From assembly GCA_048267965.1 (NCBI GenBank), contig JBLWWK010000015.1:4661-68660 (forward strand): a stretch of DNA of 64,000 nt, given 5' to 3'. Source of the DNA: Salibacteraceae bacterium. Lineage in GTDB: Bacteria > Bacteroidota > Bacteroidia > Flavobacteriales_G > Salibacteraceae. This document shows, in pieces, positions 40,326-63,812 of the stretch; the first letter of the stretch is position 1, and every line of letters starts with the position of its first letter. A program made the translations under genes and the position numbers. The notes beneath the pieces were generated by a model that was not told the origin of the DNA, ran no database searches, and saw nothing but the letters and a program-made list of their open reading frames with translations.

Positions 40326-42305
40326 ATGATAAAGTTTGATCGATCTGGTTTCTCAGATACCGAATTAAAAGATATTTACAAGCAGATTTTGCTTCCTCGA
40401 ATGATTGAAGAAAAAATGTTGATTCTTCTTCGTCAAGGTAAAATCTCAAAATGGTTTTCTGGCTATGGACAAGAAGCGGTTTCTGTAGGAGCCACTTTAG
40501 CCATGGAAAAAGAAGAATTTATTCTTCCGATGCACAGAAATTTAGGCGTTTTCACAGCGCGTGAATTACCGTTAGACCGATTATTCGCACAATTTCAAGG
40601 AAAGCCACATGGGTTTACCAATGGCCGTGATCGTTCTTTTCACTTTGGTGCAAAAGACTACAACATTGTAGGGATGATTTCTCATTTGGGACCACAAATG
40701 GGCGTGGCTGATGGTATTGGTTTATCTGATCTTTTAGATAAGAAAGAAAGCGCTACCCTTGTAGTTACAGGCGATGGTGGAGCCAGTGAGGGTGATTTTC
40801 ACGAGTCGTTAAATGTAGCTGCTGTTTGGAATTTGCCCGTTATTTTTATGGTTGAAAATAACTCTTGGGGGTTAAGTACACCTAGTAAAGAGCAGTTTAA
40901 CCACAACCAATTTGTTGATAAGGCCATTGGCTACGGAATTGAAGGCGTTCAAGTAAATGGCAATAATATTCTTGAAGTAATCAAAACCATGAAAACGGTA
41001 GCGGAAGATATTCGTAAGAACCCGAAACCGGTAATAGTGGAGATGATGACTTTCAGAATGCGCGGCCATGAAGAAGCGTCTGGAACCAAATACTATCCTG
41101 AAGGTATTCAAGATGAATGGTCGAAAAAAGATCCGGTCAATAATTTTGAGCATTTCTTGCTAGAAACCAAGGTGATTTCGCAAGAAGAAGTTGATGCTTT
41201 AAAAGCCGATATTAAAGAGCAGATTAACAAGGGGTTAGAAGTGGCTACAGCTGCCGAAGAGGTCACTTTTAATAAGGAGAAAGAACTTGCAGATTTATAT
41301 GCTCCTTTTTCTTTTCAAGAGCAAAAACCAGAAGGCAAGGTTGAAGATATGCGCTTGATAGATGCCATTTCTGATGGCTTAAAGCATGCTATGCTTAAGC
41401 ACGATAATTTGGTGCTAATGGGCCAAGATATTGCTGAGTATGGAGGCGTTTTTAAAATTACCGATGGTTTTGTGAGCCAATTTGGGAAAGACCGCGTTAG
41501 AAATACTCCATTGTGTGAATCGGCCATTTTAGGAACCGCACTCGGTTTATCGATAAAAGGCAAGAAAGCGATGATGGAAATGCAATTTGCTGATTTTGTC
41601 TCAGAAGGAATTACCCAAATTTGTAACAACTTAGCTAAGATTCATTACCGTTGGGGCCAAAATGCAGATGTAGTTGTGCGTATGCCAACGGGCGCTGGAG
41701 TAGGAGCGGGGCCGTTCCACTCTCAATCGAACGAAGCTTGGTTTACCCATGTTCCTGGTTTAAAAATTGCCTATCCTGCTTTCCCAGAAGATGCGAAAGG
41801 TTTGTTGTTAACCGCCTTTGAAGATCCCAATCCGGTGATGTTTTTCGAGCACAAAGCCTTGTATAGAAGCTTGTCAGGATCGGTTCCTACCGAGTATTAT
41901 AACTTGCCTTTTGGTAAGGCTAGAGTGGTTTCTGAAGGAACCGATTTGTCTATTATTACGTACGGAATGGGTGTGCATTGGGCATTGCAACTTGAAGAAA
42001 AGCATCCAGAGTGGAATTTAGAGATTGTTGATTTGCGCACACTGGCTCCGTTAGATTATGCAACTATTGAGCAATCAGTAGAAAAAACGGGCAAGGTATT
42101 GGTATTGCACGAAGACACACTTTTTGGCGGAATTGGTGGTGAAATTGCTGCTTATATTGGAGAAAACTGTTTTGAACATTTAGATGCTCCAGTTATGAGA
42201 AGTGGAAGCTTAGATATTCCGGTTCCGTTTCACCCAACCTTAGAGGCTGGTTTCTTGGCCAATGCAGAGTTAGAAGAAAAATTAACGAAGCTAATGACTT
42301 ACTAA
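40326..42305 (+). CDS. fused E1 alpha/beta subunits of a 2-oxoacid (branched-chain-type) dehydrogenase
   Basis: 659 aa. The N-terminal half is a TPP-binding E1-alpha (GDGGASEGDFHESLN) and the C-terminal half a transketolase-like E1-beta (VFKITDGF...RVRNTPLCE). Confidence 0.85.
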   Translation: MIKFDRSGFSDTELKDIYKQILLPRMIEEKMLILLRQGKISKWFSGYGQEAVSVGATLAMEKEEFILPMHRNLGVFTARELPLDRLFAQFQGKPHGFTNGRDRSFHFGAKDYNIVGMISHLGPQMGVADGIGLSDLLDKKESATLVVTGDGGASEGDFHESLNVAAVWNLPVIFMVENNSWGLSTPSKEQFNHNQFVDKAIGYGIEGVQVNGNNILEVIKTMKTVAEDIRKNPKPVIVEMMTFRMRGHEEASGTKYYPEGIQDEWSKKDPVNNFEHFLLETKVISQEEVDALKADIKEQINKGLEVATAAEEVTFNKEKELADLYAPFSFQEQKPEGKVEDMRLIDAISDGLKHAMLKHDNLVLMGQDIAEYGGVFKITDGFVSQFGKDRVRNTPLCESAILGTALGLSIKGKKAMMEMQFADFVSEGITQICNNLAKIHYRWGQNADVVVRMPTGAGVGAGPFHSQSNEAWFTHVPGLKIAYPAFPEDAKGLLLTAFEDPNPVMFFEHKALYRSLSGSVPTEYYNLPFGKARVVSEGTDLSIITYGMGVHWALQLEEKHPEWNLEIVDLRTLAPLDYATIEQSVEKTGKVLVLHEDTLFGGIGGEIAAYIGENCFEHLDAPVMRSGSLDIPVPFHPTLEAGFLANAELEEKLTKLMTY

Positions 42306-42379
42306 TATCGTTTGTCAAGTATCTGTATCTTTACCCTAACAGATTGCTTTTTTGGAAAGAAATTTGTTGTTATTCAGAT

Positions 42380-42970
42380 ATGCGATACGCTTTCATCATA
42401 CTATTTACTTTATTCGTGGCTGGTTCGTTTGCTCAAGAAAACGAACCAGCTACTGGTTCTAGCGTATATCGAGGTACCGTTTATCAAGGCGATACCATTG
42501 CTAACATTACTTTACGAACTCATCAGCTAACAGAACGCAGAACGTGGAAAGACCGTAGAGCGTATGTTCGTTACACTAAGCTTTCTAAAAAGGTGAAAAA
42601 GGTGTATCCGTATGCTCAATTAGCTGGGCAGAAGTTAGAGGCATATGCGCATCAACTAGATTCGGTTAAGACTGAAAGAGAAAGAAAAGTCTTTTACAAG
42701 AAGGTAGAGAAAGAACTACGAGAAGAGTACGAAGGCGAACTTAAAAAACTAACCATCTCAGAGGGGAGAATCTTGGTAAAACTAATCGATAGAGAAACCG
42801 GAAACACCAGTTATCAATTAGTAGAAGATTTGAGAGGTAAGTTTAGTGCCTTTTTTTGGCAAGGCTTAGCGCGCGTTTTCGGTCAAAATTTAAAATCAAA
42901 TTACGATCCGCAAGGTGAAGATCGAGAAATTGAGTTTATTGTTCAGCAAATAGAAGCGGGTTTGATTTAA
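42380..42970 (+). CDS. DUF4294-like secreted protein
   Basis: The ATG at 42380 gives the signal peptide MRYAFIILFTLFVAGSFAQ. KLTISEGRILVKLIDRETGNTSYQLVEDLRG resembles DUF4294 as I recall it. Confidence 0.5.
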   Translation: MRYAFIILFTLFVAGSFAQENEPATGSSVYRGTVYQGDTIANITLRTHQLTERRTWKDRRAYVRYTKLSKKVKKVYPYAQLAGQKLEAYAHQLDSVKTERERKVFYKKVEKELREEYEGELKKLTISEGRILVKLIDRETGNTSYQLVEDLRGKFSAFFWQGLARVFGQNLKSNYDPQGEDREIEFIVQQIEAGLI

Positions 42971-42978
42971 CCGATTGT

Positions 42979-43443
42979 TTAGTCTAACAATTTCTGGCGT
43001 AATAAAAATTCTAATTGCTGATTCGCTTTTTTCAACTTCTCTAGCAATTCTTTATTTTCTTTACGTAGGCTAAAAACTTCGTAAGCATTTTCGATGTTCA
43101 TGCGTAACTCTTGCTCATTCCAAGGTTTGGTAATATAACGGTAAATCTGCCCTTGGTTAATGGCGTTTATTACGGCCTCGATATCTGTATAACCTGTTAG
43201 TAGAATACGGATAGGGTCTGGATACTTATCTAAGATAGATACCAAAAACTCTACACCAGATTCATCGGGCATACGTTGATCAGTGATAATAATATCTACT
43301 GATTCTTTTTCGAGTAGTTTGCGGCCTTCTGCCGCAGAAATGGCTAGATGAATTTTATAATCTCTTCTAAAGGTAGCTTTAAAAGCGGTGAGATTGTTTT
43401 CTTCATCGTCAATATAAAGGATTGAAATTTTAGAATCTCCCAT
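42979..43443 (-). CDS. stand-alone response-regulator receiver (REC) protein with C-terminal coiled coil
   Basis: ILYIDDEENNL, ITDQRMP (phospho-acceptor Asp) and YITKPW. It is a clear paralog of the REC domain at 47656. Confidence 0.85.
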   Translation of the reverse strand: MGDSKISILYIDDEENNLTAFKATFRRDYKIHLAISAAEGRKLLEKESVDIIITDQRMPDESGVEFLVSILDKYPDPIRILLTGYTDIEAVINAINQGQIYRYITKPWNEQELRMNIENAYEVFSLRKENKELLEKLKKANQQLEFLLRQKLLD

Positions 43444-43664
43444 TAGTCATTTTGAATTATCGCGAGCGAATATAAATATAAAAAATAGGCTTGGATTCAT
43501 TCATCCACCGTATTTTCTGAACATTGTCTCAAGATGAGTATAAGTTAAAAAAGATGATTAAATGATAAAACACAAGCTTTATTATTATTTCTATTTTTCG
43601 CCCCATTCAGAATTACCCTGTTAAAAGAACAAACCTTAAATTACACCTACCATAATTCATTGTT

Positions 43665-44762
43665 ATGCTAGAAAATTCAACTCAATCCCCAGAGTGTAAA
43701 GATTCGGCTTTTGAACCTTTGGTTCTCAATCCAAAAGACGAGAGTGCATTTAAAACGATATCAGAATACAGAGAACAAGCAAAAGTTCGAGTTGTTGACT
43801 CAATTCGTTCACAAATTCGCGAGTTATTAAAATTGCGTAACCCAGCAGAGTTTGGTTCCTACCAAGATTTAGACGAAAGAATTACCCGTTATCTGGGAGA
43901 AAACCCCGATGAATATGGAGTTTGGGTTTTTTACCCTTGGAGAAACACGCTCGTTCACATTGTGGGCGAAGCAGAATTTATTGAACTGCGAACCAACCGA
44001 AATCAGTATAAGATAACAGTAGAAGAACAGCGATTATTAGCGAAGAAAACCATTGGAGTTATTGGTTTATCGGTGGGTAATTCTGTAGCGATTACCTTAG
44101 CTATGGAGCGCATTGGTGGCCATTTAGTTCTTGCTGATTTTGACCACCTTGAAGTGAGCAACTTGAATAGAATTCGCAGTGGATTGCCAGATTTAGACCT
44201 GAGTAAAGCAGTAATTGCAGCTCGACAAATTGCCGAAATAGATCCTTTTATAAAAATCACATTATTTTCTGATGGTCTTACCGAAGACAATATGCAAAAC
44301 TTTTTTACTGGTGATGGAACCCGTAAATTAGATGCAGTAGTTGAGGTTTGCGACAGCATCCATCTGAAAATAAAAAGTCGTTTCAAAGCGCGCGAACTGG
44401 GAGTTCCGGTGGTTATGGATACCAACGATAAAGGAATGGTAGACATAGAACGGTTCGATTTAGAACCTGACCGACCTATTTTTCACGGCTACTTAGAAGA
44501 AGAACAAGTAAAAAATATTGATGCAGTGGCTGGAGATGAAATGCTCAAAATTGTGTCACAAATTATTAGTTTAGGCGATGTGTCTGAACGATTGAAACTT
44601 TCGATGCCAGAAATTGGGAAAACGATTACCTCTTGGCCTCAGCTCGCTTCAGGTGTTTCTTTAGGAGGAGCTATCTCTGCCAATGTTGTTAGAAGAATGA
44701 TGCTGAATCAGTTTTCTAAAAGCGGAAGGTTTTATGTTGATCTCGATGGTTTAATTAAGTAG
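43665..44762 (+). CDS. ThiF/MoeB/HesA-family (E1-like) adenylyltransferase with an N-terminal extension of about 120 aa; no CxxC zinc motif, rhodanese domain or catalytic-Cys domain seen
   Basis: Rossmann segment KKTIGVIGLSVGNSVAITLA, E1 motif LADFDHLEVSNLNRI and VVEVCDSIHLK. The N-terminal layout recalls the first half of Rv1355c/MoeY-type proteins. Confidence 0.7.
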   Translation: MLENSTQSPECKDSAFEPLVLNPKDESAFKTISEYREQAKVRVVDSIRSQIRELLKLRNPAEFGSYQDLDERITRYLGENPDEYGVWVFYPWRNTLVHIVGEAEFIELRTNRNQYKITVEEQRLLAKKTIGVIGLSVGNSVAITLAMERIGGHLVLADFDHLEVSNLNRIRSGLPDLDLSKAVIAARQIAEIDPFIKITLFSDGLTEDNMQNFFTGDGTRKLDAVVEVCDSIHLKIKSRFKARELGVPVVMDTNDKGMVDIERFDLEPDRPIFHGYLEEEQVKNIDAVAGDEMLKIVSQIISLGDVSERLKLSMPEIGKTITSWPQLASGVSLGGAISANVVRRMMLNQFSKSGRFYVDLDGLIK

Positions 44763-44772
44763 TAGTTGAGCA

Positions 44773-45483
44773 ATGATTCGAATTAGAGCATTTAAAGCAA
44801 CCAGTGATCAAGAGTCTTGTGAACTTTTTGCTTCTGGACACGAGCAGGTGTTAAGAGATTTTGGGGTAATAAAAGTAACCTCTTCGAATAAAGAGTGGTT
44901 TGGAGATCCTAATGTTTATGTAATTTTAGTTGAGAATGAAGATGGCAGCCAGGTTTATGGCGGTGCTCGAATTCATTTGGCGGGTTCTGGAAATCCGCTT
45001 CCGGTAGAAAATGCCGTGGGCGAGATGGATCCAAAAATCTACGAACGCATTGCATCTGACATGAAAGATGGAGTAGGCGAAATGTGTGGATTATGGAATG
45101 CCAAAGAGGTGAGAGGTTCTGGCGTGAGTAAATTACTTACAAAAGCGAGCGTTGCTAAGGCAGGAGCCCATATTGCCAATCTCTTGAAGATTAAAACACT
45201 TTGGGTACTTTGTGCTCCGTATACCGTGAAAATGGTGCAAAAAGCAGGTTTTAAAATCGAAGAAGATTTAGGAGACAATGGTACGTTTCCGTATCCGAAG
45301 CCCGATTGGTTGGCTACTGTTTTGGCTTTGAGAGATACCGACACGTTAAATTCTGCCGACTCTGACGAAAGAGCCGAAATTTTTGACCTACGCACTACCC
45401 CAAAGCAAAATAGGGTTGAGAAAGGTCCCAAAGGTGAATTGATAATCGAATATGATCTTTACATTGAAGATTTAGTTGATTGA
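44773..45483 (+). CDS. GNAT-fold (acyl/acetyl-transferase-like) protein of unknown specificity
   Basis: 236 aa. GEMCGLWNAKEVRGSGVSKLLTKASVA resembles GNAT motif A (R-x-x-G-x-G/A) and LWVLCAPYTVKMVQKAGFKIEE resembles motif B. It lies 10 nt after the ThiF-like gene. Confidence 0.5.
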   Translation: MIRIRAFKATSDQESCELFASGHEQVLRDFGVIKVTSSNKEWFGDPNVYVILVENEDGSQVYGGARIHLAGSGNPLPVENAVGEMDPKIYERIASDMKDGVGEMCGLWNAKEVRGSGVSKLLTKASVAKAGAHIANLLKIKTLWVLCAPYTVKMVQKAGFKIEEDLGDNGTFPYPKPDWLATVLALRDTDTLNSADSDERAEIFDLRTTPKQNRVEKGPKGELIIEYDLYIEDLVD

Positions 45484-45505
45484 TTTCTTACAACCACGTT
45501 TACAA

Positions 45506-47650
45506 ATGAGAAAAATACTTACAACCCTTATCGTACTCTTCTTTAGTCTGGCTGGTTTTAGCAAAGACATTGTTGTTGAACCCAATACGTTGAATAAGCT
45601 TGGGGAAGGCATGCAAGTGTTCAGTACCGAAGAAGATTTAACGGTTCATCAGGTTCTGATAAAAGGCTCTTTTATGCCGATTGATTCGGAAGTGCCTAAT
45701 CTCGGGGTGTCGAATAAAACCCATTGGATTAAATTTTCTATCCATAATAAAGAATCGATCGATAATATCTTAATTGATATTAATAACCCCATCTTAGATG
45801 TTGTTAACCTTTATACAGAGTCTTCTTCTGGCTACGATTTGGTAGTTTCAGGAGAACAAGTACCGATTAGTGATCGCTATTTAGAACATCAAGATTTTAT
45901 TTTTCCATTAGACTTAGCACCGGGTGAAAAGAAAAACTACTTACTGCAAGTAAAAAGCGGTGAGCAAGTACTTTTACCTGTTTTAGCAGGCGAGTCGGGG
46001 GTTGTAATGCAAAACCTGTTACTGAGAAACGTAATTATGGGCCTTTATTTCGGGCTTATTTTGGTGATGTTTTTCTACAACTTGTTTATTTACTTCACAA
46101 CAAAAGATCGTTCGTATTTAACGTATGTTGTTTACATCTTGAGTGTGGGGTTGGTTCAAGCGAATTTACAAGGTTTCACGTATAAGTTTCTTTGGCCAAA
46201 TAGTCCTTGGTTGGCGGCTAATAGCGTATATATATTGAACACAACCACAGCTATTTTAGCGGTTACCTTCATGAGGGGGTTCGTTCATATTAAAGATTAT
46301 TTGCCTAAGCTCAACAGAGTGTTAGACGTGTTCCTACTACTATACGTAGTAAGTTTATTGGTGGCTATTTTGGGCAATTACAACTTTGCTTACATGTTAA
46401 TGAATTTCACAGCGTTGGCGTTGTCTTTTTATATGCTGGTGATTTTAGGCATGGCAGTGCAAAGAGGTTCTCGACCTGCAAAATTCTTTATGTTAGCATG
46501 GTCGGTATTTTTGGTAGGCGTTATCTTGTTTGTATTAAAAGACGCTTCGATTATTCCTCACAACAATTTAACAGCGGCCATTTTGCAAATTGGCTCTGGT
46601 GGAGAGGTAATTCTTCTTTCTTTTGGTTTGGCCGATAAAATCAATACACTGAAAAAAGAAAAAGAAGAATCGCAGAAAATGGCCCTTGAAGCTTCGAAAG
46701 AAAATGAAAGAATCGTACGTGAGCAAAATATGATTCTCGAAGCCAAAGTAAGCGAAAGAACCAAAGAATTAAGAGATGCTAATACCGATTTAGAGTCAGC
46801 ACTCACCAACTTGAAAAATGCTCAAACTCAACTGGTAGATCAAGAGAAAATGGCCAGCTTAGGGCAGCTAACTGCTGGTATTGCTCACGAAATAAACAAT
46901 CCCATCAACTTTGTAACCAGTAATGTAAGTCCGCTTAAACGCGATGTTGCCGATGTTTTTGAAGTGTTAGACAAATACGGGAATCTTCAATCTGGAGAGC
47001 AATTCGATACCGAAAAAGAGGCGATAGAAGAGCTAAAAGAAGAAGTAGAACTCGATTTTGTACGAACCGAAATCAATTCACTTTTAAAAGGTATTGAAGA
47101 AGGAGCCAGCAGAACCGCAGAAATTGTACGCGGTCTAAAGGTGTTTTCTCGTATGGATGAGCAAGATTTAAAACGAGTAGATCTTCGAGAAGGAATCAAT
47201 TCTACACTTACTCTTTTGCGCAGTAGCATGCACGGTAAAATAGACGTAGAAAGAAACTACGAAGTGGTAGGGAATGTAGAATGTTACGCTGGGAAACTCA
47301 ATCAAGTTTTTATGAATATCTTGAGTAACAGTATTCATGCGATTTTAGACGCCAACCGAGAGCAAGGCTCGCTAAAAATTGCCATTCTAAATAAAGATGC
47401 CGATAATGTGTTAATTACCATTGAAGATAACGGAACGGGTATGCCAGACCACGTAAAACAACGTATTTTTGAACCGTTTTTTACTACGAAAAAGGTAGGT
47501 GAAGGAACCGGACTCGGCATGTCGATTTCTTACAGCATCATTGAAAAACACAATGGTTCTATAGAAGTAGAAACCAAAAACGGAGAAGGAACCAAATTTT
47601 TAATAACACTGCCCAAACTACAAACTGAAGAGAACACCACAGAAGATTGA
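45506..47650 (+). CDS. 7TMR-DISM sensor histidine kinase (7TMR-DISMED2 extracellular domain, 7 TM, coiled coil, HisKA, HATPase_c)
   Basis: Signal peptide, HWIKFSIHNK...NPILDVVNLY, seven hydrophobic helices, H-box AGIAHEINNPINF, N-box NILSNSIHA, then DNGTGM and GEGTGLGMS. Confidence 0.85.
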   Translation: MRKILTTLIVLFFSLAGFSKDIVVEPNTLNKLGEGMQVFSTEEDLTVHQVLIKGSFMPIDSEVPNLGVSNKTHWIKFSIHNKESIDNILIDINNPILDVVNLYTESSSGYDLVVSGEQVPISDRYLEHQDFIFPLDLAPGEKKNYLLQVKSGEQVLLPVLAGESGVVMQNLLLRNVIMGLYFGLILVMFFYNLFIYFTTKDRSYLTYVVYILSVGLVQANLQGFTYKFLWPNSPWLAANSVYILNTTTAILAVTFMRGFVHIKDYLPKLNRVLDVFLLLYVVSLLVAILGNYNFAYMLMNFTALALSFYMLVILGMAVQRGSRPAKFFMLAWSVFLVGVILFVLKDASIIPHNNLTAAILQIGSGGEVILLSFGLADKINTLKKEKEESQKMALEASKENERIVREQNMILEAKVSERTKELRDANTDLESALTNLKNAQTQLVDQEKMASLGQLTAGIAHEINNPINFVTSNVSPLKRDVADVFEVLDKYGNLQSGEQFDTEKEAIEELKEEVELDFVRTEINSLLKGIEEGASRTAEIVRGLKVFSRMDEQDLKRVDLREGINSTLTLLRSSMHGKIDVERNYEVVGNVECYAGKLNQVFMNILSNSIHAILDANREQGSLKIAILNKDADNVLITIEDNGTGMPDHVKQRIFEPFFTTKKVGEGTGLGMSISYSIIEKHNGSIEVETKNGEGTKFLITLPKLQTEENTTED

Positions 47651-47655
47651 GACTA

Positions 47656-48750
47656 ATGAAAGAAAGCAAGCCAAGAATTCTTATAGTAGATGATGAAGAA
47701 AACAACTTGAACTCGTTTAAGTCGTGTTTTCGCAGACATTATAAAATATTCGCAGCTGTTCACGTTGACGATGCCTTCAAAATTCTCGAGAAAGAAGACA
47801 TTGAAATTGTGCTTACCGATCAACGAATGCCTAAAATCTCTGGAGTAGAATTTCTTGAGCAAGTAGTTGAGAAATACCCTCATACCATTAGAATGTTACT
47901 TACTGGTTTCGATGACTTTAAACCAGCCATTCAAGCAGTAAACCAAGGTGCTATCTATAAATATATCTCGAAACCTTGGAACGAAGACGAACTAAAAAAC
48001 ACCATTGATAATGCGGTAGAAACTTATAGAAACCGCATGTTACTTCAGAAAAGAAATCAAGAACTAAAGAAAGCTTATAACGAGCTAGATTCTTTTGTAT
48101 ACCGGGCTTCTCACGATATTCGTGGTCCTTTAATGAGTATTTTGGGAATTACCAATTTGGCCAAATTAGAAGGAGCCAATGAAGAAATGACCAACTACTT
48201 TAACTTGATTGAAAAAAGCATTCACCAGTTAGATGTTTTTGTGAGAAATATGGTCGATTACTCACGAAACTCGCGTTTAGAAGATCGATACGAACACATT
48301 AGTCTATCCATCATGCTCAAAGAGGTGCTAGAGCATTTGGCATTTGTTGAGCCAAGAAGTACTCAGCTAAATGTGATGCAAAAAATCGAAGGAGACGATG
48401 AGGTGTACACCGATCGCGACCGACTGAAAATCATTGTACAAAACTTGCTTTCCAATGCCGTACGCTTTCAGCGAGAAGGTGTACAAGGCGAGGTCTCTAT
48501 TCACATCCAAAACACCAAGAACGAACTGCTGATAGAGGTAGAAGACAACGGAATTGGCATAAAACCTTCTCAATTCGAGAGCATTTTCGATATTTTCTAT
48601 AGAGGTTCAGATATGAGCCAAGGCTCCGGCATAGGACTTTATGTTTGCCGAGAAGCAGTAAGCAAACTAAATGGAGAAATAAAAGTTGACTCAACGGTAG
48701 GAACCGGCTCCATCTTTAATGTGAATCTGCCGCATCCTTCAGAAAAATAA
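47656..48750 (+). CDS. hybrid response regulator - histidine kinase (REC + HisKA + HATPase_c)
   Basis: REC domain (ILIVDDEENNL, LTDQRMP, YISKPW), H-box RASHDIRGPL, N-box NLLSNAVRF, then DNGIGI and GSGIGL. It starts 5 nt after the upstream stop. Confidence 0.85.
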   Translation: MKESKPRILIVDDEENNLNSFKSCFRRHYKIFAAVHVDDAFKILEKEDIEIVLTDQRMPKISGVEFLEQVVEKYPHTIRMLLTGFDDFKPAIQAVNQGAIYKYISKPWNEDELKNTIDNAVETYRNRMLLQKRNQELKKAYNELDSFVYRASHDIRGPLMSILGITNLAKLEGANEEMTNYFNLIEKSIHQLDVFVRNMVDYSRNSRLEDRYEHISLSIMLKEVLEHLAFVEPRSTQLNVMQKIEGDDEVYTDRDRLKIIVQNLLSNAVRFQREGVQGEVSIHIQNTKNELLIEVEDNGIGIKPSQFESIFDIFYRGSDMSQGSGIGLYVCREAVSKLNGEIKVDSTVGTGSIFNVNLPHPSEK

Positions 48751-48777: not shown

Positions 48778-49602
48778 TTATGAAGCTGAAGAAAGGTCTC
48801 TTAAGGCAGATTTTACCATATTTAGCTTCGAAAGATTCCCGTTAGATAGAATTTTTACAAATCGATTTTCTTTTAACTTCATGGCTTTAAAAATGGCCAT
48901 ATCAGAGTATCCTTTTTGGTTCCAACTGCTTACTTGCTCCATAAATTGTTCAAGAAACTGAAGTTTGTTTTTCAGTTTTTCTTTACCATCTTTCAATTGC
49001 GGATTGTGAGCGCAAAAGAGCACATCGAAATCCAAGGTTAAAATTCGTTGAATAGATTCAATTTGTTGCTGAATGCTTTCATCTTTCAGCATAAATCCTA
49101 TGTGTGTGTTGATGAATAAATCGGCACTAAATAGCCATTTCTTAATGGGTTCGTACAGGGCTACCATATCAGCAGCATGACCCGGAACCGCAATCAACTG
49201 AAACCGATATTTAGGAGTTTCTAACCAATCAGAATTAATTGCTTTGATATTAAAATTAGCACCACGAGAAGCGTACATCACTTTCTGAATACAACTTAAA
49301 GAAGGCGGCTTTTGCATTATTTCACGAGTAAGGGAAGACGAAAAAGCTTCGCATCCATGTTTTGCGCATATTTCATCAATATTTCCTGTATGATCTTCGT
49401 GATGGTGGGTTATAAAAACTTGTTGGATGGGCAAAGAATGCGTTGCAGATAAAATGGAAGGTTGCATTCTTCGTTGACCTGTATCAATCAATAATCCATC
49501 AACAAAATAGAGGTAAACAAACAAATTGGGTTTCTTAAAAGGATGATACCCAAATCGAAAAGCCTGTATTTCTTCAAATTGAAAAGAGCTCGTAGACTTC
49601 AC
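48778..49602 (-). CDS. MBL-fold metallo-hydrolase
   Basis: ITHHHEDHTG (HxHxDH), with later His/Asp ligands. The apparent GTG start lies 16 nt after the adhesin gene stop. Confidence 0.8.
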   Translation of the reverse strand: MKSTSSFQFEEIQAFRFGYHPFKKPNLFVYLYFVDGLLIDTGQRRMQPSILSATHSLPIQQVFITHHHEDHTGNIDEICAKHGCEAFSSSLTREIMQKPPSLSCIQKVMYASRGANFNIKAINSDWLETPKYRFQLIAVPGHAADMVALYEPIKKWLFSADLFINTHIGFMLKDESIQQQIESIQRILTLDFDVLFCAHNPQLKDGKEKLKNKLQFLEQFMEQVSSWNQKGYSDMAIFKAMKLKENRFVKILSNGNLSKLNMVKSALRDLSSAS

Positions 49603-49617: not shown

Positions 49618-52278
49618 TTACTTAATCAAAGTCACTTTTCCTTGGTATTCATGGCTTTCAAAATCGATGTCGTTATACGTTACCTTCCACCAAAAGAAAT
49701 CTTGGCCAGACATGGCGCCACTGTTATCTCTTTTACCGTTCCAATACACGGTAGGATCCGAGGTGGAAAACACCAAATCTCCTAATCGGTTAAACACTAA
49801 AAACTCATAATTGGCCACCACGCGCTCGTTGATAACAGGCCCAAACTCATCGTTTAATCCATCGCCATTGGGTGTAAAAGAGTTCGGAATAAAGAAATTA
49901 GGATACTCGTATCCAACGCGCACTTCTTGAGAAGTAGTATCTGCGCACCCCAATGCATTAAAGGCAATTAATTCAACGTTGTATGTTCCGCTATCTCTAA
50001 AATCGAAGAAGAACGAAGGCTGGTCAGAAGTTCTAATTCCATCTATCGACCATATCCAATTGGTGGCGTTAACTGTAGTCGAATTAAAAGTAGCCAGCGG
50101 ATTAGAAATGGTGAAAACCTCATCAGGTAATACATCAAATCTGGCTCTCGGAACCGGTTGAACTACCACTAAATCGGTGTCGGTTCTAATACTATCACAA
50201 TAATCGGTTCGTACCTCTAACGTAACATCAAACGTATCAATGGTGTTGTACGTGTGACTAATCGTAGATGAGTTGGCAATTCCTAAGATTCCATCCCCAA
50301 AGTTGAACAAGTAAAATGCCTCTGGATCGTACTCATCGAGCACAAACGTAGCAGGTTGGCCAATGCAAATCGGATTTTCTACTGAATAGGTATGGGTAGG
50401 GAAGGTGTCTACTTGCACGGTGATAGAATCTACAAAAGGTGTAGAACCGCAGCCGTCTGTAATGGTAACAGTGTAGACTCCAGAAGTATCAGGCGTTAAA
50501 TTTTGAGTGGCTCCACCAGCACCATTACTCCAATTAAACGTATAATTTCCGTCTCCACCAGAAGCATAGGCAGAAAAAGAAACAGAACCACCTATACAAG
50601 TACCAATATTTTGGTCAACACTTCCCGCAAAAGGAGGAAGAACCGAAACAGTAGCCGTTTCTACAATTACGGGGCAGTTATTGGCATCGGTGGCGGTCAC
50701 CGAATAAGTACTGCTTACAGAAGGAGAAACCGTAATATTCTGCGTATTGTCTCCAGTGCTCCAGTTGTAGTTGTATGGAGGTGTGCCACCGAATAGAGTT
50801 AAACTAAGGGTCTCGGTAGTTCCAGGGCAAATAGAAACATCGGGTAGTGGAGCGTTGGTAATCACACTGGGTTCAGTTACCACTATATTAACCACCTCGC
50901 TGCAACCACCTCCATTGGTTATCGTAACATCGTAATTGCCAGCGCATAAATTGGTGGCTGTGGTTCCTATATCTCCGTTCGACCAGAAGAAATTGTATGA
51001 ACCGTTATCGTGTGGAATTTGAACTTGGGCTGAGCCGTTGCACAATCCATTACAAGTAGGTTCATTAATGGTGGTTTGAATACCCGCTAAGATATCCGAA
51101 TCTACCGTTACGGTTCCTGTGGCAGCTCCACCACATCCGAATTCATTCGTGATAGAGAACACATTGTAGGTTGATGAACCGGCTCCTACCGGAAACTGAG
51201 GAGGTAAATTGGTAGTAGTATCTATGCCATTAGAATCGAGCACATAGTTGTACAAATTGGTTCCATCAAAAAGACTCACCAAAAAGAGCGAATTTCCGCT
51301 GGTGAAGTTTACGTTAACCGGCACCACAGTTCCGGGGCAAGAAATAGTATCGCCAGAAAGGGTGGCAATAACGCTATCTAAAACAGTGTAGGTGAAAGAA
51401 TCTTGACGCGTAACACCGCAATTATCGGTAACTGTAACTGTGTAATTAGTTGTGGTAGAAGGCGTGGCTGTTGGCGATTGAGCCGTTGCAGAAGATAAAC
51501 CCGCTGTGGGCGACCACTGAAAAGTGTTCCCAATTCCGGCACTGGCTAAATGCGGTGTTCCTTCACAAAGGGTAACATCCGTCATTTGATCGTCTTGGTT
51601 AAAAAAGTCGATGCAAACATCTTGTAAATTGGTGTTAGCTCCAGAACTTGCAGAAAAACCCCAAAATACATTCGGATCACCTGAAAAGAAAGTATTGATA
51701 ATGTCTCCAGTATAGCTGATGCGCAAATCACAATCTACCCAAACTTGAAAAAGCTGAGAAGTAGGATTCCAACGAATATGTACCTCGTGATCCATTCCCG
51801 TTTCAACATTCGCGTTGGTAGGCGTAATTCCTACAGGCCCTACTAAGTTGTTGGGAGAAGAATGGTTTAAAGCTCCATTTCTAGAAAGTGCCATGTGGTC
51901 AAAAGCGGGGTCGTTCAAGGCGGCATCTTGATCGGTATCGAATTCTACTACCAAAGAAGGTGTGGTTCCTTCTATACCTAATCCACTGCCACCCGGCTGC
52001 ACTACAGCCGTGCTAAATTGTTGAAAACTAAACGCAACACCGCTGCCACCTGTAGCATCATTAAAACCAAAATCGATGCGGGTATATAAATCAAAAGGCT
52101 CGTTAAGGTTTATTTGCTGAGTAGCGAAAAAACTTCCTTCTTGATTAGCCATATTGCTAGTTAGTCTAAAGCATTCGTTGGCCAACGCAATTGCAGAACC
52201 GTTTACGTTGTACTGGCCTAAAGTGGTAAACCAACCCAAAAAGAGGAAGAATGTAAAGTATATTCTATGCAAAATCAC
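49618..52278 (-). CDS. large surface adhesin-like protein: N-terminal L-type (legume-like) lectin domain, multiple Ig-like/SprB/PKD repeats, T9SS type-B (gliding-motility-associated) C-terminal domain
   Basis: N-terminus: GGSGVAFSFQ...GGSGLGIEGTTPSLVVEFDTDQD. Repeated CNG.CNGSA / Y.F.WS.G units are present. C-terminus: IPNSFTPNGDGLNDEF...WNGK. The apparent start is GTG. Confidence 0.8.
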   Translation of the reverse strand: MILHRIYFTFFLFLGWFTTLGQYNVNGSAIALANECFRLTSNMANQEGSFFATQQINLNEPFDLYTRIDFGFNDATGGSGVAFSFQQFSTAVVQPGGSGLGIEGTTPSLVVEFDTDQDAALNDPAFDHMALSRNGALNHSSPNNLVGPVGITPTNANVETGMDHEVHIRWNPTSQLFQVWVDCDLRISYTGDIINTFFSGDPNVFWGFSASSGANTNLQDVCIDFFNQDDQMTDVTLCEGTPHLASAGIGNTFQWSPTAGLSSATAQSPTATPSTTTNYTVTVTDNCGVTRQDSFTYTVLDSVIATLSGDTISCPGTVVPVNVNFTSGNSLFLVSLFDGTNLYNYVLDSNGIDTTTNLPPQFPVGAGSSTYNVFSITNEFGCGGAATGTVTVDSDILAGIQTTINEPTCNGLCNGSAQVQIPHDNGSYNFFWSNGDIGTTATNLCAGNYDVTITNGGGCSEVVNIVVTEPSVITNAPLPDVSICPGTTETLSLTLFGGTPPYNYNWSTGDNTQNITVSPSVSSTYSVTATDANNCPVIVETATVSVLPPFAGSVDQNIGTCIGGSVSFSAYASGGDGNYTFNWSNGAGGATQNLTPDTSGVYTVTITDGCGSTPFVDSITVQVDTFPTHTYSVENPICIGQPATFVLDEYDPEAFYLFNFGDGILGIANSSTISHTYNTIDTFDVTLEVRTDYCDSIRTDTDLVVVQPVPRARFDVLPDEVFTISNPLATFNSTTVNATNWIWSIDGIRTSDQPSFFFDFRDSGTYNVELIAFNALGCADTTSQEVRVGYEYPNFFIPNSFTPNGDGLNDEFGPVINERVVANYEFLVFNRLGDLVFSTSDPTVYWNGKRDNSGAMSGQDFFWWKVTYNDIDFESHEYQGKVTLIK

Positions 52279-62732: not shown

Positions 62733-63812
62733 TTAAGCCACTTGCTCAAGTTCGGGTACATGAACAATGGGTAGTTTAATGGTAAAGGTAGCTCCTAATC
62801 CTGCGCCATCGCTGTGTGCGGTGATTTCTCCCTTAGCCCTAGAAACCAGTTTCTGACAAAGGTGTAAACCAATGCCATGAGAATCTTCTTTAGCGTTAAA
62901 ATTGCGGTCTAACGTGGCGTTGTATTTAAAGATTTTGTCTTTGTCTTTGGGCGAAAATCCATCTCCTTTATCCGTAATAGACAAGCGAATAAACTGATTA
63001 CAAACGGTAGACTGAATGGCAATTGTTTTGTGGTTTGGACTGTATTTTATAGCGTTGCTAAGTACGTTAATGGCACTTCTGTAAAGCGGTAATTCAGCTA
63101 CTTCGATATGAGAAGAAGTGTCTCCCGAAATACTTAAATCTAGGTTTTTCTCACGCAGTGATAGGCGAAATTTATCGTTAATTTTCTGAAAAAAGTCATC
63201 TAGACGAATAACGGAAACCTCTATTTCGTTCTGCAAATTATTCTTCTTCTTTTTGATAGAGTTGATTAAGTATTCCATCTCTGCTATTTGAGAACGGATC
63301 GATTGTTCCATTAAATCAAGAGAGCTTTTTATATTTTCAGGACTCTGATCAATTTTTAAAACTTCGATTAAACCCAGCACATTTTTAGCAGGTCGTTGCA
63401 AGTCATGAGAAAGTAATTGAACACTGCTTAAACGTTGTTCTTCAAACTCTTCTAGCTTTAAAATGGTAGATTGTACATCGCTCATTAATTGCCCAACTTC
63501 GTCTGTGTGTTGGCTCGGTAAGGTGGGTATTTTAGAGTGATTTATGTAATTTTTTAACGCCTGATTGGTAATTAATATAGGTTGTAACAACCCGTTTAAA
63601 GCATACAGAGTGAGGCTGGTAGCCACTAATGTAAGAACTAGAGTGAGCCCGCCCATCCATAACGGATTTTGCTGAGCTTGAGGAGAACTAAGTAGAAATA
63701 AGATGATGCCAACGAGTGGAATATGGGTTCCAACAAAGGCAATAAAGAAAGTTTTTAGGGTAAAACTCCTCTTTAAAAAAGGGATTTTACTCAAGAATGA
63801 GTAAGATTTCAT
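62733..63812 (-). CDS. membrane sensor histidine kinase (2 TM, HAMP-like linker, HisKA, HATPase_c)
   Basis: H-box LLSHDLQRPA, N-box NVLSNAIKYS, then DKGDGF and SHGIGLHL. No cognate regulator lies within the window. Confidence 0.85.
   Translation of the reverse strand: MKSYSFLSKIPFLKRSFTLKTFFIAFVGTHIPLVGIILFLLSSPQAQQNPLWMGGLTLVLTLVATSLTLYALNGLLQPILITNQALKNYINHSKIPTLPSQHTDEVGQLMSDVQSTILKLEEFEEQRLSSVQLLSHDLQRPAKNVLGLIEVLKIDQSPENIKSSLDLMEQSIRSQIAEMEYLINSIKKKKNNLQNEIEVSVIRLDDFFQKINDKFRLSLREKNLDLSISGDTSSHIEVAELPLYRSAINVLSNAIKYSPNHKTIAIQSTVCNQFIRLSITDKGDGFSPKDKDKIFKYNATLDRNFNAKEDSHGIGLHLCQKLVSRAKGEITAHSDGAGLGATFTIKLPIVHVPELEQVA

Follow-up and report, generated by a model that had tools for sequence, protein, structure and literature searches.

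The subject of this analysis is a gene cassette on contig JBLWWK010000015.1 of a Salibacteraceae bacterium (assembly GCA_048267965.1), of which a stretch of 64,000 nucleotides (nt), referred to here as the window, was analysed. The cassette comprises four tightly packed genes, encoding in turn a ThiF-like protein, a 236-amino acid (aa) protein designated P236, a 7TMR-DISM histidine kinase and a soluble REC-HisKA-HATPase hybrid (the REC-kinase), together with a divergently transcribed gene for a stand-alone REC protein. The first two genes encode an enzyme pair that is a relative of the OxzAB, TyzACB and TrzAS N-acyl-oxazolone pathways published between 2020 and 2025, and comparison of related loci reveals that the invariant core of the cassette is the P236 synthase plus the 7TMR-DISM kinase, the ThiF-like protein being one of several interchangeable tailoring enzymes. 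The enzymatic assignment of P236 and the ThiF-like protein is made with considerable confidence, whereas the explanation as a whole, in which the two synthesise an oxazolone and the relay senses the product, is judged to have an even chance of being correct.

The enzyme logic is known from published work. OxzA of Pseudoalteromonas rubra N-acylates tyrosine or phenylalanine from acyl-CoA, and OxzB, a ThiF-nitroreductase fusion, carries out the ATP-dependent cyclisation and oxidation to the oxazolone (bioRxiv 10.1101/2020.06.11.147165). OxzAB, and TyzACB of Mycobacterium tuberculosis, constitute tyrazolone/phenazolone pathways (bioRxiv 10.1101/2020.06.11.147165; PMC10404671), while TrzAS (Rv1356c/Rv1355c of M. 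tuberculosis), characterised in 2025, is responsible for N-acyl tryptazolone biosynthesis; cyclisation by TrzS obligatorily precedes desaturation, and a crippled oxidase causes the saturated cyclised intermediate to build up (PMC12856293). An earlier note on this DNA, made from the sequence alone, had regarded the combination of genes as undescribed, which does not hold for the enzymes, since the pairing of ThiF with an acyltransferase has been in the literature from 2020 onwards and Rv1355c was identified as TrzS in 2025. Its proposal that the two genes form a small-molecule pathway, with amide formation by a GNAT enzyme and carboxylate activation by an E1-like enzyme, is very likely to be right.

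Relatives of P236 were found in 560 of 185,579 species genomes scanned, and the locus counts given here cover the best 80 of those 560, essentially all of them Bacteroidota. The consensus gene order is REC (minus strand), ThiF-oxidase fusion, P236, 7TMR-DISM kinase, REC-kinase and a small REC. Among the 68 loci with enough downstream DNA, the 7TMR-DISM kinase gene is found no more than 3 kb downstream of P236 in 67, the sole exception (L026) having a fragmented kinase, and the adjacency of enzymes and kinases that the earlier note had described therefore extends well beyond this genome. The kinase is followed by a REC-kinase or another receiver/kinase protein in 64 of 66 loci, this protein being read as REC-PAS-HisKA_3 in five Vicingaceae/Brumimicrobium loci on the strength of open reading frames and Pfam matches checked on one of them (L011), and a divergent stand-alone REC is present in 71/80. 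The order is kept where P236 identity to the window protein is only 40% and the flanking genes are unrelated. Indeed, dozens of species, drawn from several orders of the Bacteroidota and differing in the flanking genes, share this arrangement, which places the clustering far beyond chance. Cultivable genera that possess the cassette include Chitinophaga, Pedobacter, Parapedobacter and Thermaurantimonas.

It is the tailoring position that varies. A fused ThiF-oxidase occupies it in 47/80 loci and ThiF alone (325–382 aa) in 19/80, including a complete Chitinophaga genome; the window is likewise ThiF-only. In six loci from Mucilaginibacter and other Sphingobacteriales (L030, L048, L053, L059, L061 and L065) ThiF is replaced by an S-adenosylmethionine-dependent methyltransferase of 254 aa, encoded between synthase and kinase (about 8825–9589 in L030), which suggests a product of methyl-ester type, recalling PhcB signals. 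One locus (L063, 1205–2833, Cytophaga sp.) has a 542-aa FAD_binding_4 oxidase between synthase and 7TMR-DISM kinase, and a few, L043 among them, have no tailoring enzyme at all. The earlier note had taken the E1-like gene as the anchor of the module, a role that the comparative data transfer to P236 and the 7TMR-DISM kinase.

The ThiF-like protein matches the NCBIfam 'Rv1355c family' model NF005901 (E=1.1e-133, 447.1 bits), with residues 11–364 aligned to profile positions 6–339 of 722. Since the match covers these residues, the N-terminal extension of some 120 residues, likened to Rv1355c in the earlier note, is a feature of the family. Because the C-terminal half is missing, the score falls just short of the cut-off for the whole protein (476); P0491, a 632-aa protein in which a ThiF-only domain of the same architecture is fused directly to a P236 domain, scores 482 bits. 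The absent half is the flavin-dependent oxidase, of nitroreductase fold, so that the window protein consists of the adenylating half only of the usual ThiF-oxidase fusion, a point that the earlier note had missed. Most relatives carry the fused form, as exemplified by the 772-aa Owenweeksia protein (L003), the second half of which is nitroreductase-fold, and the last residues of the window protein ('...DLDGLIK') coincide exactly with the domain boundary of these fused relatives. A search across the 64-kb window found no oxidase homologue. A full-length Bacteroidota orthologue is 33–36% identical to actinobacterial 'Rv1355c family' proteins over 85–96% of its length.

The adenylation motifs are intact (G134-L-S-V-G138, D158/D160 in ADFD, N166xNR169, K181, C229-D230, K235 and D255) and are common to all or nearly all of 72 aligned sequences, three actinobacterial TrzS homologues included. 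D230 aligns with the Asp of ThiF 'DCTDN' and with TcdA 'AIDS', and on the basis of this motif would be the equivalent of TrzS D217, the D217A substitution of which abolishes cyclisation. By sequence, the nearest solved structure is that of TcdA, an E1-like cyclodehydratase (E=9e-8). The only cysteines are Cys11 and Cys229, and thus there is no Zn-binding CxxC, as the earlier note had observed. That the gene is simply the organism's ordinary MoeB/ThiF, its sulfur-carrier partner being encoded elsewhere, would accord with the Pfam placement in PF00899, but the NCBIfam models for ThiF, MoeB, MoeZ and TcdA score just 20–59 bits against cut-offs of 152–647, compared with 447 bits for the Rv1355c model, the Zn-site cysteines are missing, and the gene is kept beside a synthase and kinases rather than cofactor genes. 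The chance that it is a canonical MoeB/ThiF is practically negligible.

A different possibility is that the window gene is a decaying remnant of a ThiF-oxidase fusion, catalytically irrelevant, in which case the locus would make an N-acyl amino acid only. The fused form is, after all, the majority state, L043 and the methyltransferase-type loci still hold synthase and kinases despite having no ThiF gene, and the N-acyl intermediates of TrzAS are reported to build up mostly in the culture supernatant (PMC12856293). However, every adenylation motif is retained, the protein stops cleanly at the domain boundary, and the best 120 database relatives listed (48–70% identity) are nearly all stand-alone proteins of 353–395 aa, with one of 479 aa. 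A neighbour-joining tree of ThiF domains, in which support is weak, has the ThiF-only forms interspersed among the fused ones, which suggests several independent losses of the oxidase. Given the 19 ThiF-only loci scattered on this tree, the 120 stand-alone relatives and the P0491 fusion, the oxidase-less form is an established recurrent variant as opposed to a local accident. A ThiF-only gene paired with a GNAT gene, again with no oxidase, occurs moreover on a Streptomyces plasmid, and decay of the window gene is considered improbable. On the plasmid in question (Streptomyces sp. NBC_01471; L083, 3917–5715), the 388-aa Rv1355c-like gene overlaps that for a 211-aa 'GNAT family protein', the two lying downstream of a MerR regulator; the two may be an oxidase-less pair that arose independently in Actinomycetota.

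P236 returned no match from Pfam (E≤0.01) or NCBIfam, nothing meaningful from single-sequence and profile searches against the PDB, and only spurious Bacillus matches, at 28% identity over half of the query, from a tblastn search of plasmids. An AlphaFold (AF2) model built from 43 sequences is of high confidence (pLDDT 90.4, pTM 0.88), and its top Foldseek matches in the PDB are BjaI (5w8a, E=4e-7) and FeeM (2g0b, E=9e-7), with TM up to 0.60/0.78; BjaI and RpaI, which are CoA-dependent acyl-homoserine lactone (AHL) synthases, and the N-acyl amino acid synthase FeeM (E 4e-7 to 1e-6; TM 0.5–0.78) rank ahead of generic GNATs. The GNAT reading proposed in the earlier note thus finds no backing in the domain searches and is borne out by the model. 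FeeM (2G0B) and BjaI (5W8C) are also the closest structural homologues of TyzA (PMC10404671). In the case of TrzA, family members are 'hypothetical proteins' of about 250 aa that adjoin Rv1355c-family genes on a Rhodococcus plasmid and, in a Mycobacterium chromosome, immediately precede the gene for a 710-aa ThiF protein, downstream of which a GAF-GGDEF-EAL protein is encoded; a model of this family (pLDDT 90.5) has BjaI as its top match and FeeM chains close behind, like that of P236.

Scanned against Pfam at E≤5, the 43 family members gave sub-threshold matches to Acetyltransf_1 in 12 (best 0.014) and to FeeM in two (best 0.069), and never to Autoind_synth (PF00765). Weak as they are, the Acetyltransf_1 and FeeM matches agree with the model. 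Membership of the LuxI-type AHL synthases was accordingly rejected, PF00765 being matched neither by P236 nor by these relatives. Invariant residues of the family are E103, C105, W108 and N109, located on one strand, and the ensuing G115-x-G117 loop. The family extends to 124 clusters at 90% identity, all of them unnamed or 'hypothetical', and to 640 representatives at 50% identity, and P236 is the founder of a Bacteroidota family for which neither Pfam nor NCBIfam has a model. P236 domains are additionally found fused to an N-terminal TIR-like domain (P0395, 570 aa) and to leucine-rich repeats (P0394, 662 aa), which hints at uses outside the cassette; the P236 profile matches P0364 (479 aa) in two stretches, and L064 has two adjacent P236 genes.

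It could also be envisaged that P236 is a protein acyl- or acetyltransferase acting on a relay component, with the ThiF-like enzyme adenylating a protein C-terminus in the manner of a classical E1. Many of the GNATs retrieved by Foldseek are indeed protein acetyltransferases (GCN5, NatD, Naa80), but the best structural matches, BjaI, FeeM and RpaI, are small-molecule acyltransferases, the ThiF-like protein belongs to a biochemically characterised family of small-molecule cyclases without a Zn-binding CxxC, and no gene for a ubiquitin-like, ThiS/MoaD-like, E2 or JAB protein is present. A protein-modifying E1/GNAT pair was rejected on the basis of the structural matches, the cyclase family membership and the missing partner genes, and is rated as very improbable.

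In the mechanism that is favoured here, P236 would move an acyl group from acyl-CoA or acyl-acyl carrier protein to the amino group of an amino acid, a step predicted from the fold and from the parallel in genomic setting with TrzA, TyzA and OxzA. The ThiF-like enzyme, by virtue of its membership of the TrzS family and its intact adenylation motifs, would then adenylate the free carboxylate of the resultant N-acyl amino acid with ATP, allowing the amide oxygen to close the ring to a 5(4H)-oxazolone. Since the fused flavin oxidase has been lost in this lineage, the product is expected to be a saturated, more reactive oxazolone (azlactone), or a derivative of one, and not of the conjugated tyrazolone/tryptazolone type; given the reactivity of the ring, what finally accumulates may be the saturated ring itself, an N-acyl amino acid in racemised form, or an adduct. 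The cue for the adjacent 7TMR-DISM kinase would be this lipophilic product or the N-acyl amino acid from which it is formed; the kinase would phosphorylate the receiver of the REC-kinase, and the latter would in turn signal to the stand-alone REC. Because the module encodes no DNA-binding output, the output of the relay is presumably a protein-protein interaction. Sensing of the product is suggested by the conserved gene order and by the architecture of the phcBSRQ operon, considered at the end, and is put at a little below an even prospect.

The 7TMR-DISM kinase combines a DISMED2 domain in the periplasm with seven transmembrane helices and with HisKA and HATPase domains, and has Pfam matches to 7TMR-DISM_7TM (E=1.6e-50), 7TMR-DISMED2 (1.6e-25), HATPase_c (6e-25) and HisKA, while the REC-kinase matches Response_reg (2.5e-20), HisKA (7e-09) and HATPase_c (1.1e-26). 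The paralogy noted previously between the stand-alone REC and the REC domain of the hybrid is upheld, the two being 52% identical over 152 aa (E=1e-50). The last 14 residues of the stand-alone REC, NxQLEF[LM]xRQxLL[SD], form a tail that is kept across orders and that can be aligned to the beginning of the REC-kinase DHp helix ('YNELDSFVYRASHD'), stopping short of the phospho-accepting His. The stand-alone REC has the appearance of a REC-kinase paralogue that has been cut short, and it might pair with the dimerisation helix of that kinase. Pedobacter loci L060, L070, L071, L072, L075 and L078 have two tandem stand-alone REC genes upstream of the ThiF-oxidase gene.

Several observations weigh against the proposed scheme. 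An hhalign comparison of the P236 and TrzA families is not significant (E=0.12 over 183 columns), and for this reason it is fold and genomic setting on which the assignment as a synthase is based. In that alignment the GGxR, E-x-[C/K]-x-x-W and YP motifs stand in colinear positions; profile-profile comparisons of P236 with two unrelated neighbours of ThiF genes were likewise not significant. P236 is thus the equivalent of TrzA in fold and genomic role, sequence homology between them not being demonstrable. As regards the product, a saturated oxazolone is hydrolytically labile, which renders a role as diffusible signal uncertain, and an unlinked oxidase could yet be encoded elsewhere in the genome, the search for one having covered the 64-kb window. 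As regards sensing, the case for binding of the product by the kinase is one of conserved synteny only. DISMED2 (28% mean identity) and the 7TM region (42%) are the least conserved parts of the kinase; such greater divergence of sensor regions than of the catalytic part is seen in most kinases and is no argument either way. Finally, no residues in P236 or in the 7TMR-DISM kinase were found to track the presence or absence of the oxidase across its independent losses, so that changes in the predicted end product are not visibly mirrored in the sensor.

The lack of co-variation between sensor domains and type of tailoring enzyme counts in favour of an alternative in which the relay controls synthesis rather than senses its product. 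In that event, the 7TMR-DISM kinase would respond to an external stimulus (a surface or carbohydrate signal, calcium, or stress from antibiotics or at the envelope, for instance), and the cascade would turn on an N-acyl amino acid lipid with a protective, antimicrobial or membrane-active function, at the level of its synthesis or of its activity; the lipid would be an output and not a signal. The 7TMR-DISM kinases RetS and LadS respond to external cues. Additionally, sub-lethal antibiotics induce oxazolone production in proteobacteria (bioRxiv 10.1101/2020.06.11.147165), and the M. tuberculosis tyz genes have been tied to oxidative-stress resistance (PMC12856293; PMC10404671). However, neither a transcription factor nor any other evident effector by which the relay might act on the enzymes is encoded in the module, and the enzyme genes precede those for the kinases in one transcript, as is typical of synthase-receptor pairs such as phcBSRQ. 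Control in place of sensing is a viable reading, if a less likely one.

Were the relay to sense the product, the cassette could represent a native cell-cell or autocrine signalling system of the Bacteroidota, in which N-acyl amino acid derivatives (oxazolones, saturated azlactones, methyl esters or oxidised forms, according to lineage) act as signals and the 7TMR-DISM kinase as receptor; this wider interpretation is advanced tentatively. No genetically defined synthase-receptor quorum-sensing pair is known in the Bacteroidota, which would thereby gain a Phc/Cqs-like system. A first physiological role would, moreover, be assigned to the oxazolone lipids of M. tuberculosis and marine bacteria. 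The papers on N-acyl oxazolones (2020–2025) leave their biological role open, and a signalling role has already been suspected by the authors of the pathways (PMC12856293; bioRxiv 10.1101/2020.06.11.147165); the cassette, which in all or nearly all of about 80 genomes ties the synthase to a membrane kinase and phosphorelay of its own, provides a testable handle on that role. A literature search found no paper linking N-acyl amino acid/oxazolone synthases to 7TMR-DISM kinases or to Bacteroidota quorum sensing, and the very large ThiF-oxidase clusters of published networks probably contain the proteins of these loci implicitly. What is new, then, is the sequence family of the synthase, the recurrent oxidase-less form and the apparently unreported, phylum-wide coupling to a phosphorelay, and the oxidase-less, methyltransferase and FAD-oxidase forms point to chemistry not yet described.

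The layout of the locus is given in Table 1. All five open reading frames, their spacing and their packing are as the earlier note had them, and Pfam agrees with its identification of the E1/ThiF core, the 7TMR-DISM kinase, the REC-HisKA-HATPase hybrid and the lone REC. A 10-nt gap separates the ThiF-like and P236 genes; P236 and the 7TMR-DISM kinase gene overlap by 8 nt if the latter starts at TTG 45476 or are 22 nt apart if it starts at ATG 45506, and the 7TMR-DISM kinase and REC-kinase genes overlap by 4 nt (TTG 47647) or are separated by 5 nt (ATG 47656). Base composition is even throughout the region. Promoters are presumed, from the gene layout only, to lie in the divergent intergenic region, in which the strict Bacteroidota -7 motif TAnnTTTG was not found. 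A search for a shared operator in 56 homologous REC/ThiF intergenic regions retrieved only AT-rich k-mers in common, and a sigma-70 promoter/terminator scan, which is ill-suited to Bacteroidota promoters, returned fewer sites than shuffled sequence.

Table 1. Features of the synthase-phosphorelay cassette (positions are those of the window)
Feature	Position	Strand	Remarks
Stand-alone REC	42979..43443	-	154 aa; divergently transcribed; Pfam Response_reg E=1.6e-19
Divergent intergenic region	43444..43664		221 bp, AT-rich; presumed promoters for REC gene and four-gene operon
ThiF-like cyclase (predicted), Rv1355c/TrzS family	43665..44762	+	365 aa; Pfam ThiF (PF00899) E=3.7e-14
P236, predicted synthase	44773..45483	+	236 aa; assigned from model fold and gene context
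7TMR-DISM histidine kinase	45476..47650	+	724 aa; likely start ATG 45506
REC-HisKA-HATPase hybrid	47647..48750	+	367 aa; soluble; likely start ATG 47656

The genes that flank the module are of other kinds, and no thiamine, molybdopterin, ThiS/MoaD, rhodanese, E2 or JAB genes are found among its neighbours, in keeping with the earlier note. Immediately upstream are genes for a 659-aa fused alpha/beta E1 component of a 2-oxoacid dehydrogenase (40326–42305, plus strand) and a DUF4294 protein (42344–42970, plus strand), both of which are also upstream in the closest relative, L001, and in no other locus; the dehydrogenase could be a source of branched acyl-CoA for the cassette, although nothing ties it to the latter. 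Convergent on the end of the operon is a gene for a 274-aa metallo-beta-lactamase-fold protein (48778–49602, minus strand). AHL lactonases share this fold, but the idea of a signal-degrading lactonase was set aside, as a counterpart is present in 0/80 related loci and the adjacency is probably coincidental. Beyond it lies a gene for an 886-aa secreted protein (49618–52278, minus strand) with a legume-lectin domain, PKD and SprB repeats and a CHU_C type IX secretion signal, and an acetyl-CoA synthetase and a SUI1 protein are encoded among the other flanking genes. An open reading frame at 62733–63812 (minus strand) encodes a 359-aa histidine-kinase-like protein with weak similarity to the catalytic part of the REC-kinase.

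Of the systems with which the cassette may be compared, TrzAS is the closest in its enzymes. Membership of NF005901, every adenylation motif and the N-terminal extension are shared by the window ThiF-like protein, as are an adjacent acyltransferase of about 240 aa with a FeeM/BjaI-like fold, tight packing on one strand, and the proximity of signalling genes, which in M. tuberculosis are concerned with cyclic di-GMP turnover. However, the flavin-oxidase half is lacking, and this locus alone cannot therefore make a conjugated oxazolone; the order, ThiF followed by synthase, is the reverse of trzA-trzS; P236 has no significant sequence similarity to TrzA; and the partner is a 7TMR-DISM phosphorelay rather than GGDEF/EAL proteins, in a different phylum. 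OxzAB and TyzACB have in common with the proposed pathway an N-acyltransferase followed by ATP-dependent cyclisation by a ThiF-like enzyme, with TyzB providing a precedent for a stand-alone cyclase. In both, though, the oxidase is kept (fused in OxzB, adjacent as TyzC) and no sensor kinase has been reported alongside, and their ThiF proteins fall in a sub-cluster other than that of TrzS (PMC12856293).

Clusters of N-acyl amino acid synthase, ThiF and nitroreductase genes, with or without a methyltransferase, direct synthesis of the N-acyl dehydrotyrosines stieleriacines, thalassotalic acids and kyonggic acids, and are listed for Pseudomonadota, Actinomycetota and Planctomycetota only, Bacteroidota not being among them (PMC12479983). 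They resemble the Bacteroidota loci in their methyltransferase tailoring and in the existence of a natural variant, devoid of ThiF/nitroreductase, that makes saturated compounds only, such variants being known from Planctomycetota and Pseudomonadota, but no kinase linkage is described for them (PMC12479983). With the LuxI-type and FeeM-type synthases P236 shares a GNAT core in which strand beta-4 bears an invariant acidic residue and is followed by a Gly-rich loop, but the TM-scores are no higher than 0.5–0.6, and P236 differs in the lack of a significant Autoind_synth or FeeM match and in an extra C-terminal helix and hairpin. TcdA (CsdL), the nearest solved relative of the ThiF-like protein, is a tRNA t6A cyclodehydratase; its substrate is a tRNA nucleoside, and it neither has the N-terminal extension nor is clustered with an acyltransferase.

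For the module as a whole, the closest parallel is phcBSRQ; CqsA/CqsS and LqsA/LqsS are further synthase-kinase pairs with lipophilic signals. The phcBSRQ quorum-sensing operon of Ralstonia encodes a synthase, a membrane kinase, a soluble REC plus kinase protein without a DNA-binding domain, and a REC-only protein (PMC8578825). PhcB is not a GNAT but a methyltransferase with a 3-hydroxy fatty acid as substrate, and PhcS is not a 7TMR-DISM kinase; the resemblance is one of architecture only. Nevertheless, the layout of synthase, kinase, REC-kinase and REC, with no DNA-binding output, is the same, and the Phc signal is a carboxyl-masked fatty-acyl compound, in parallel with the methyltransferase-type loci of the Bacteroidota.

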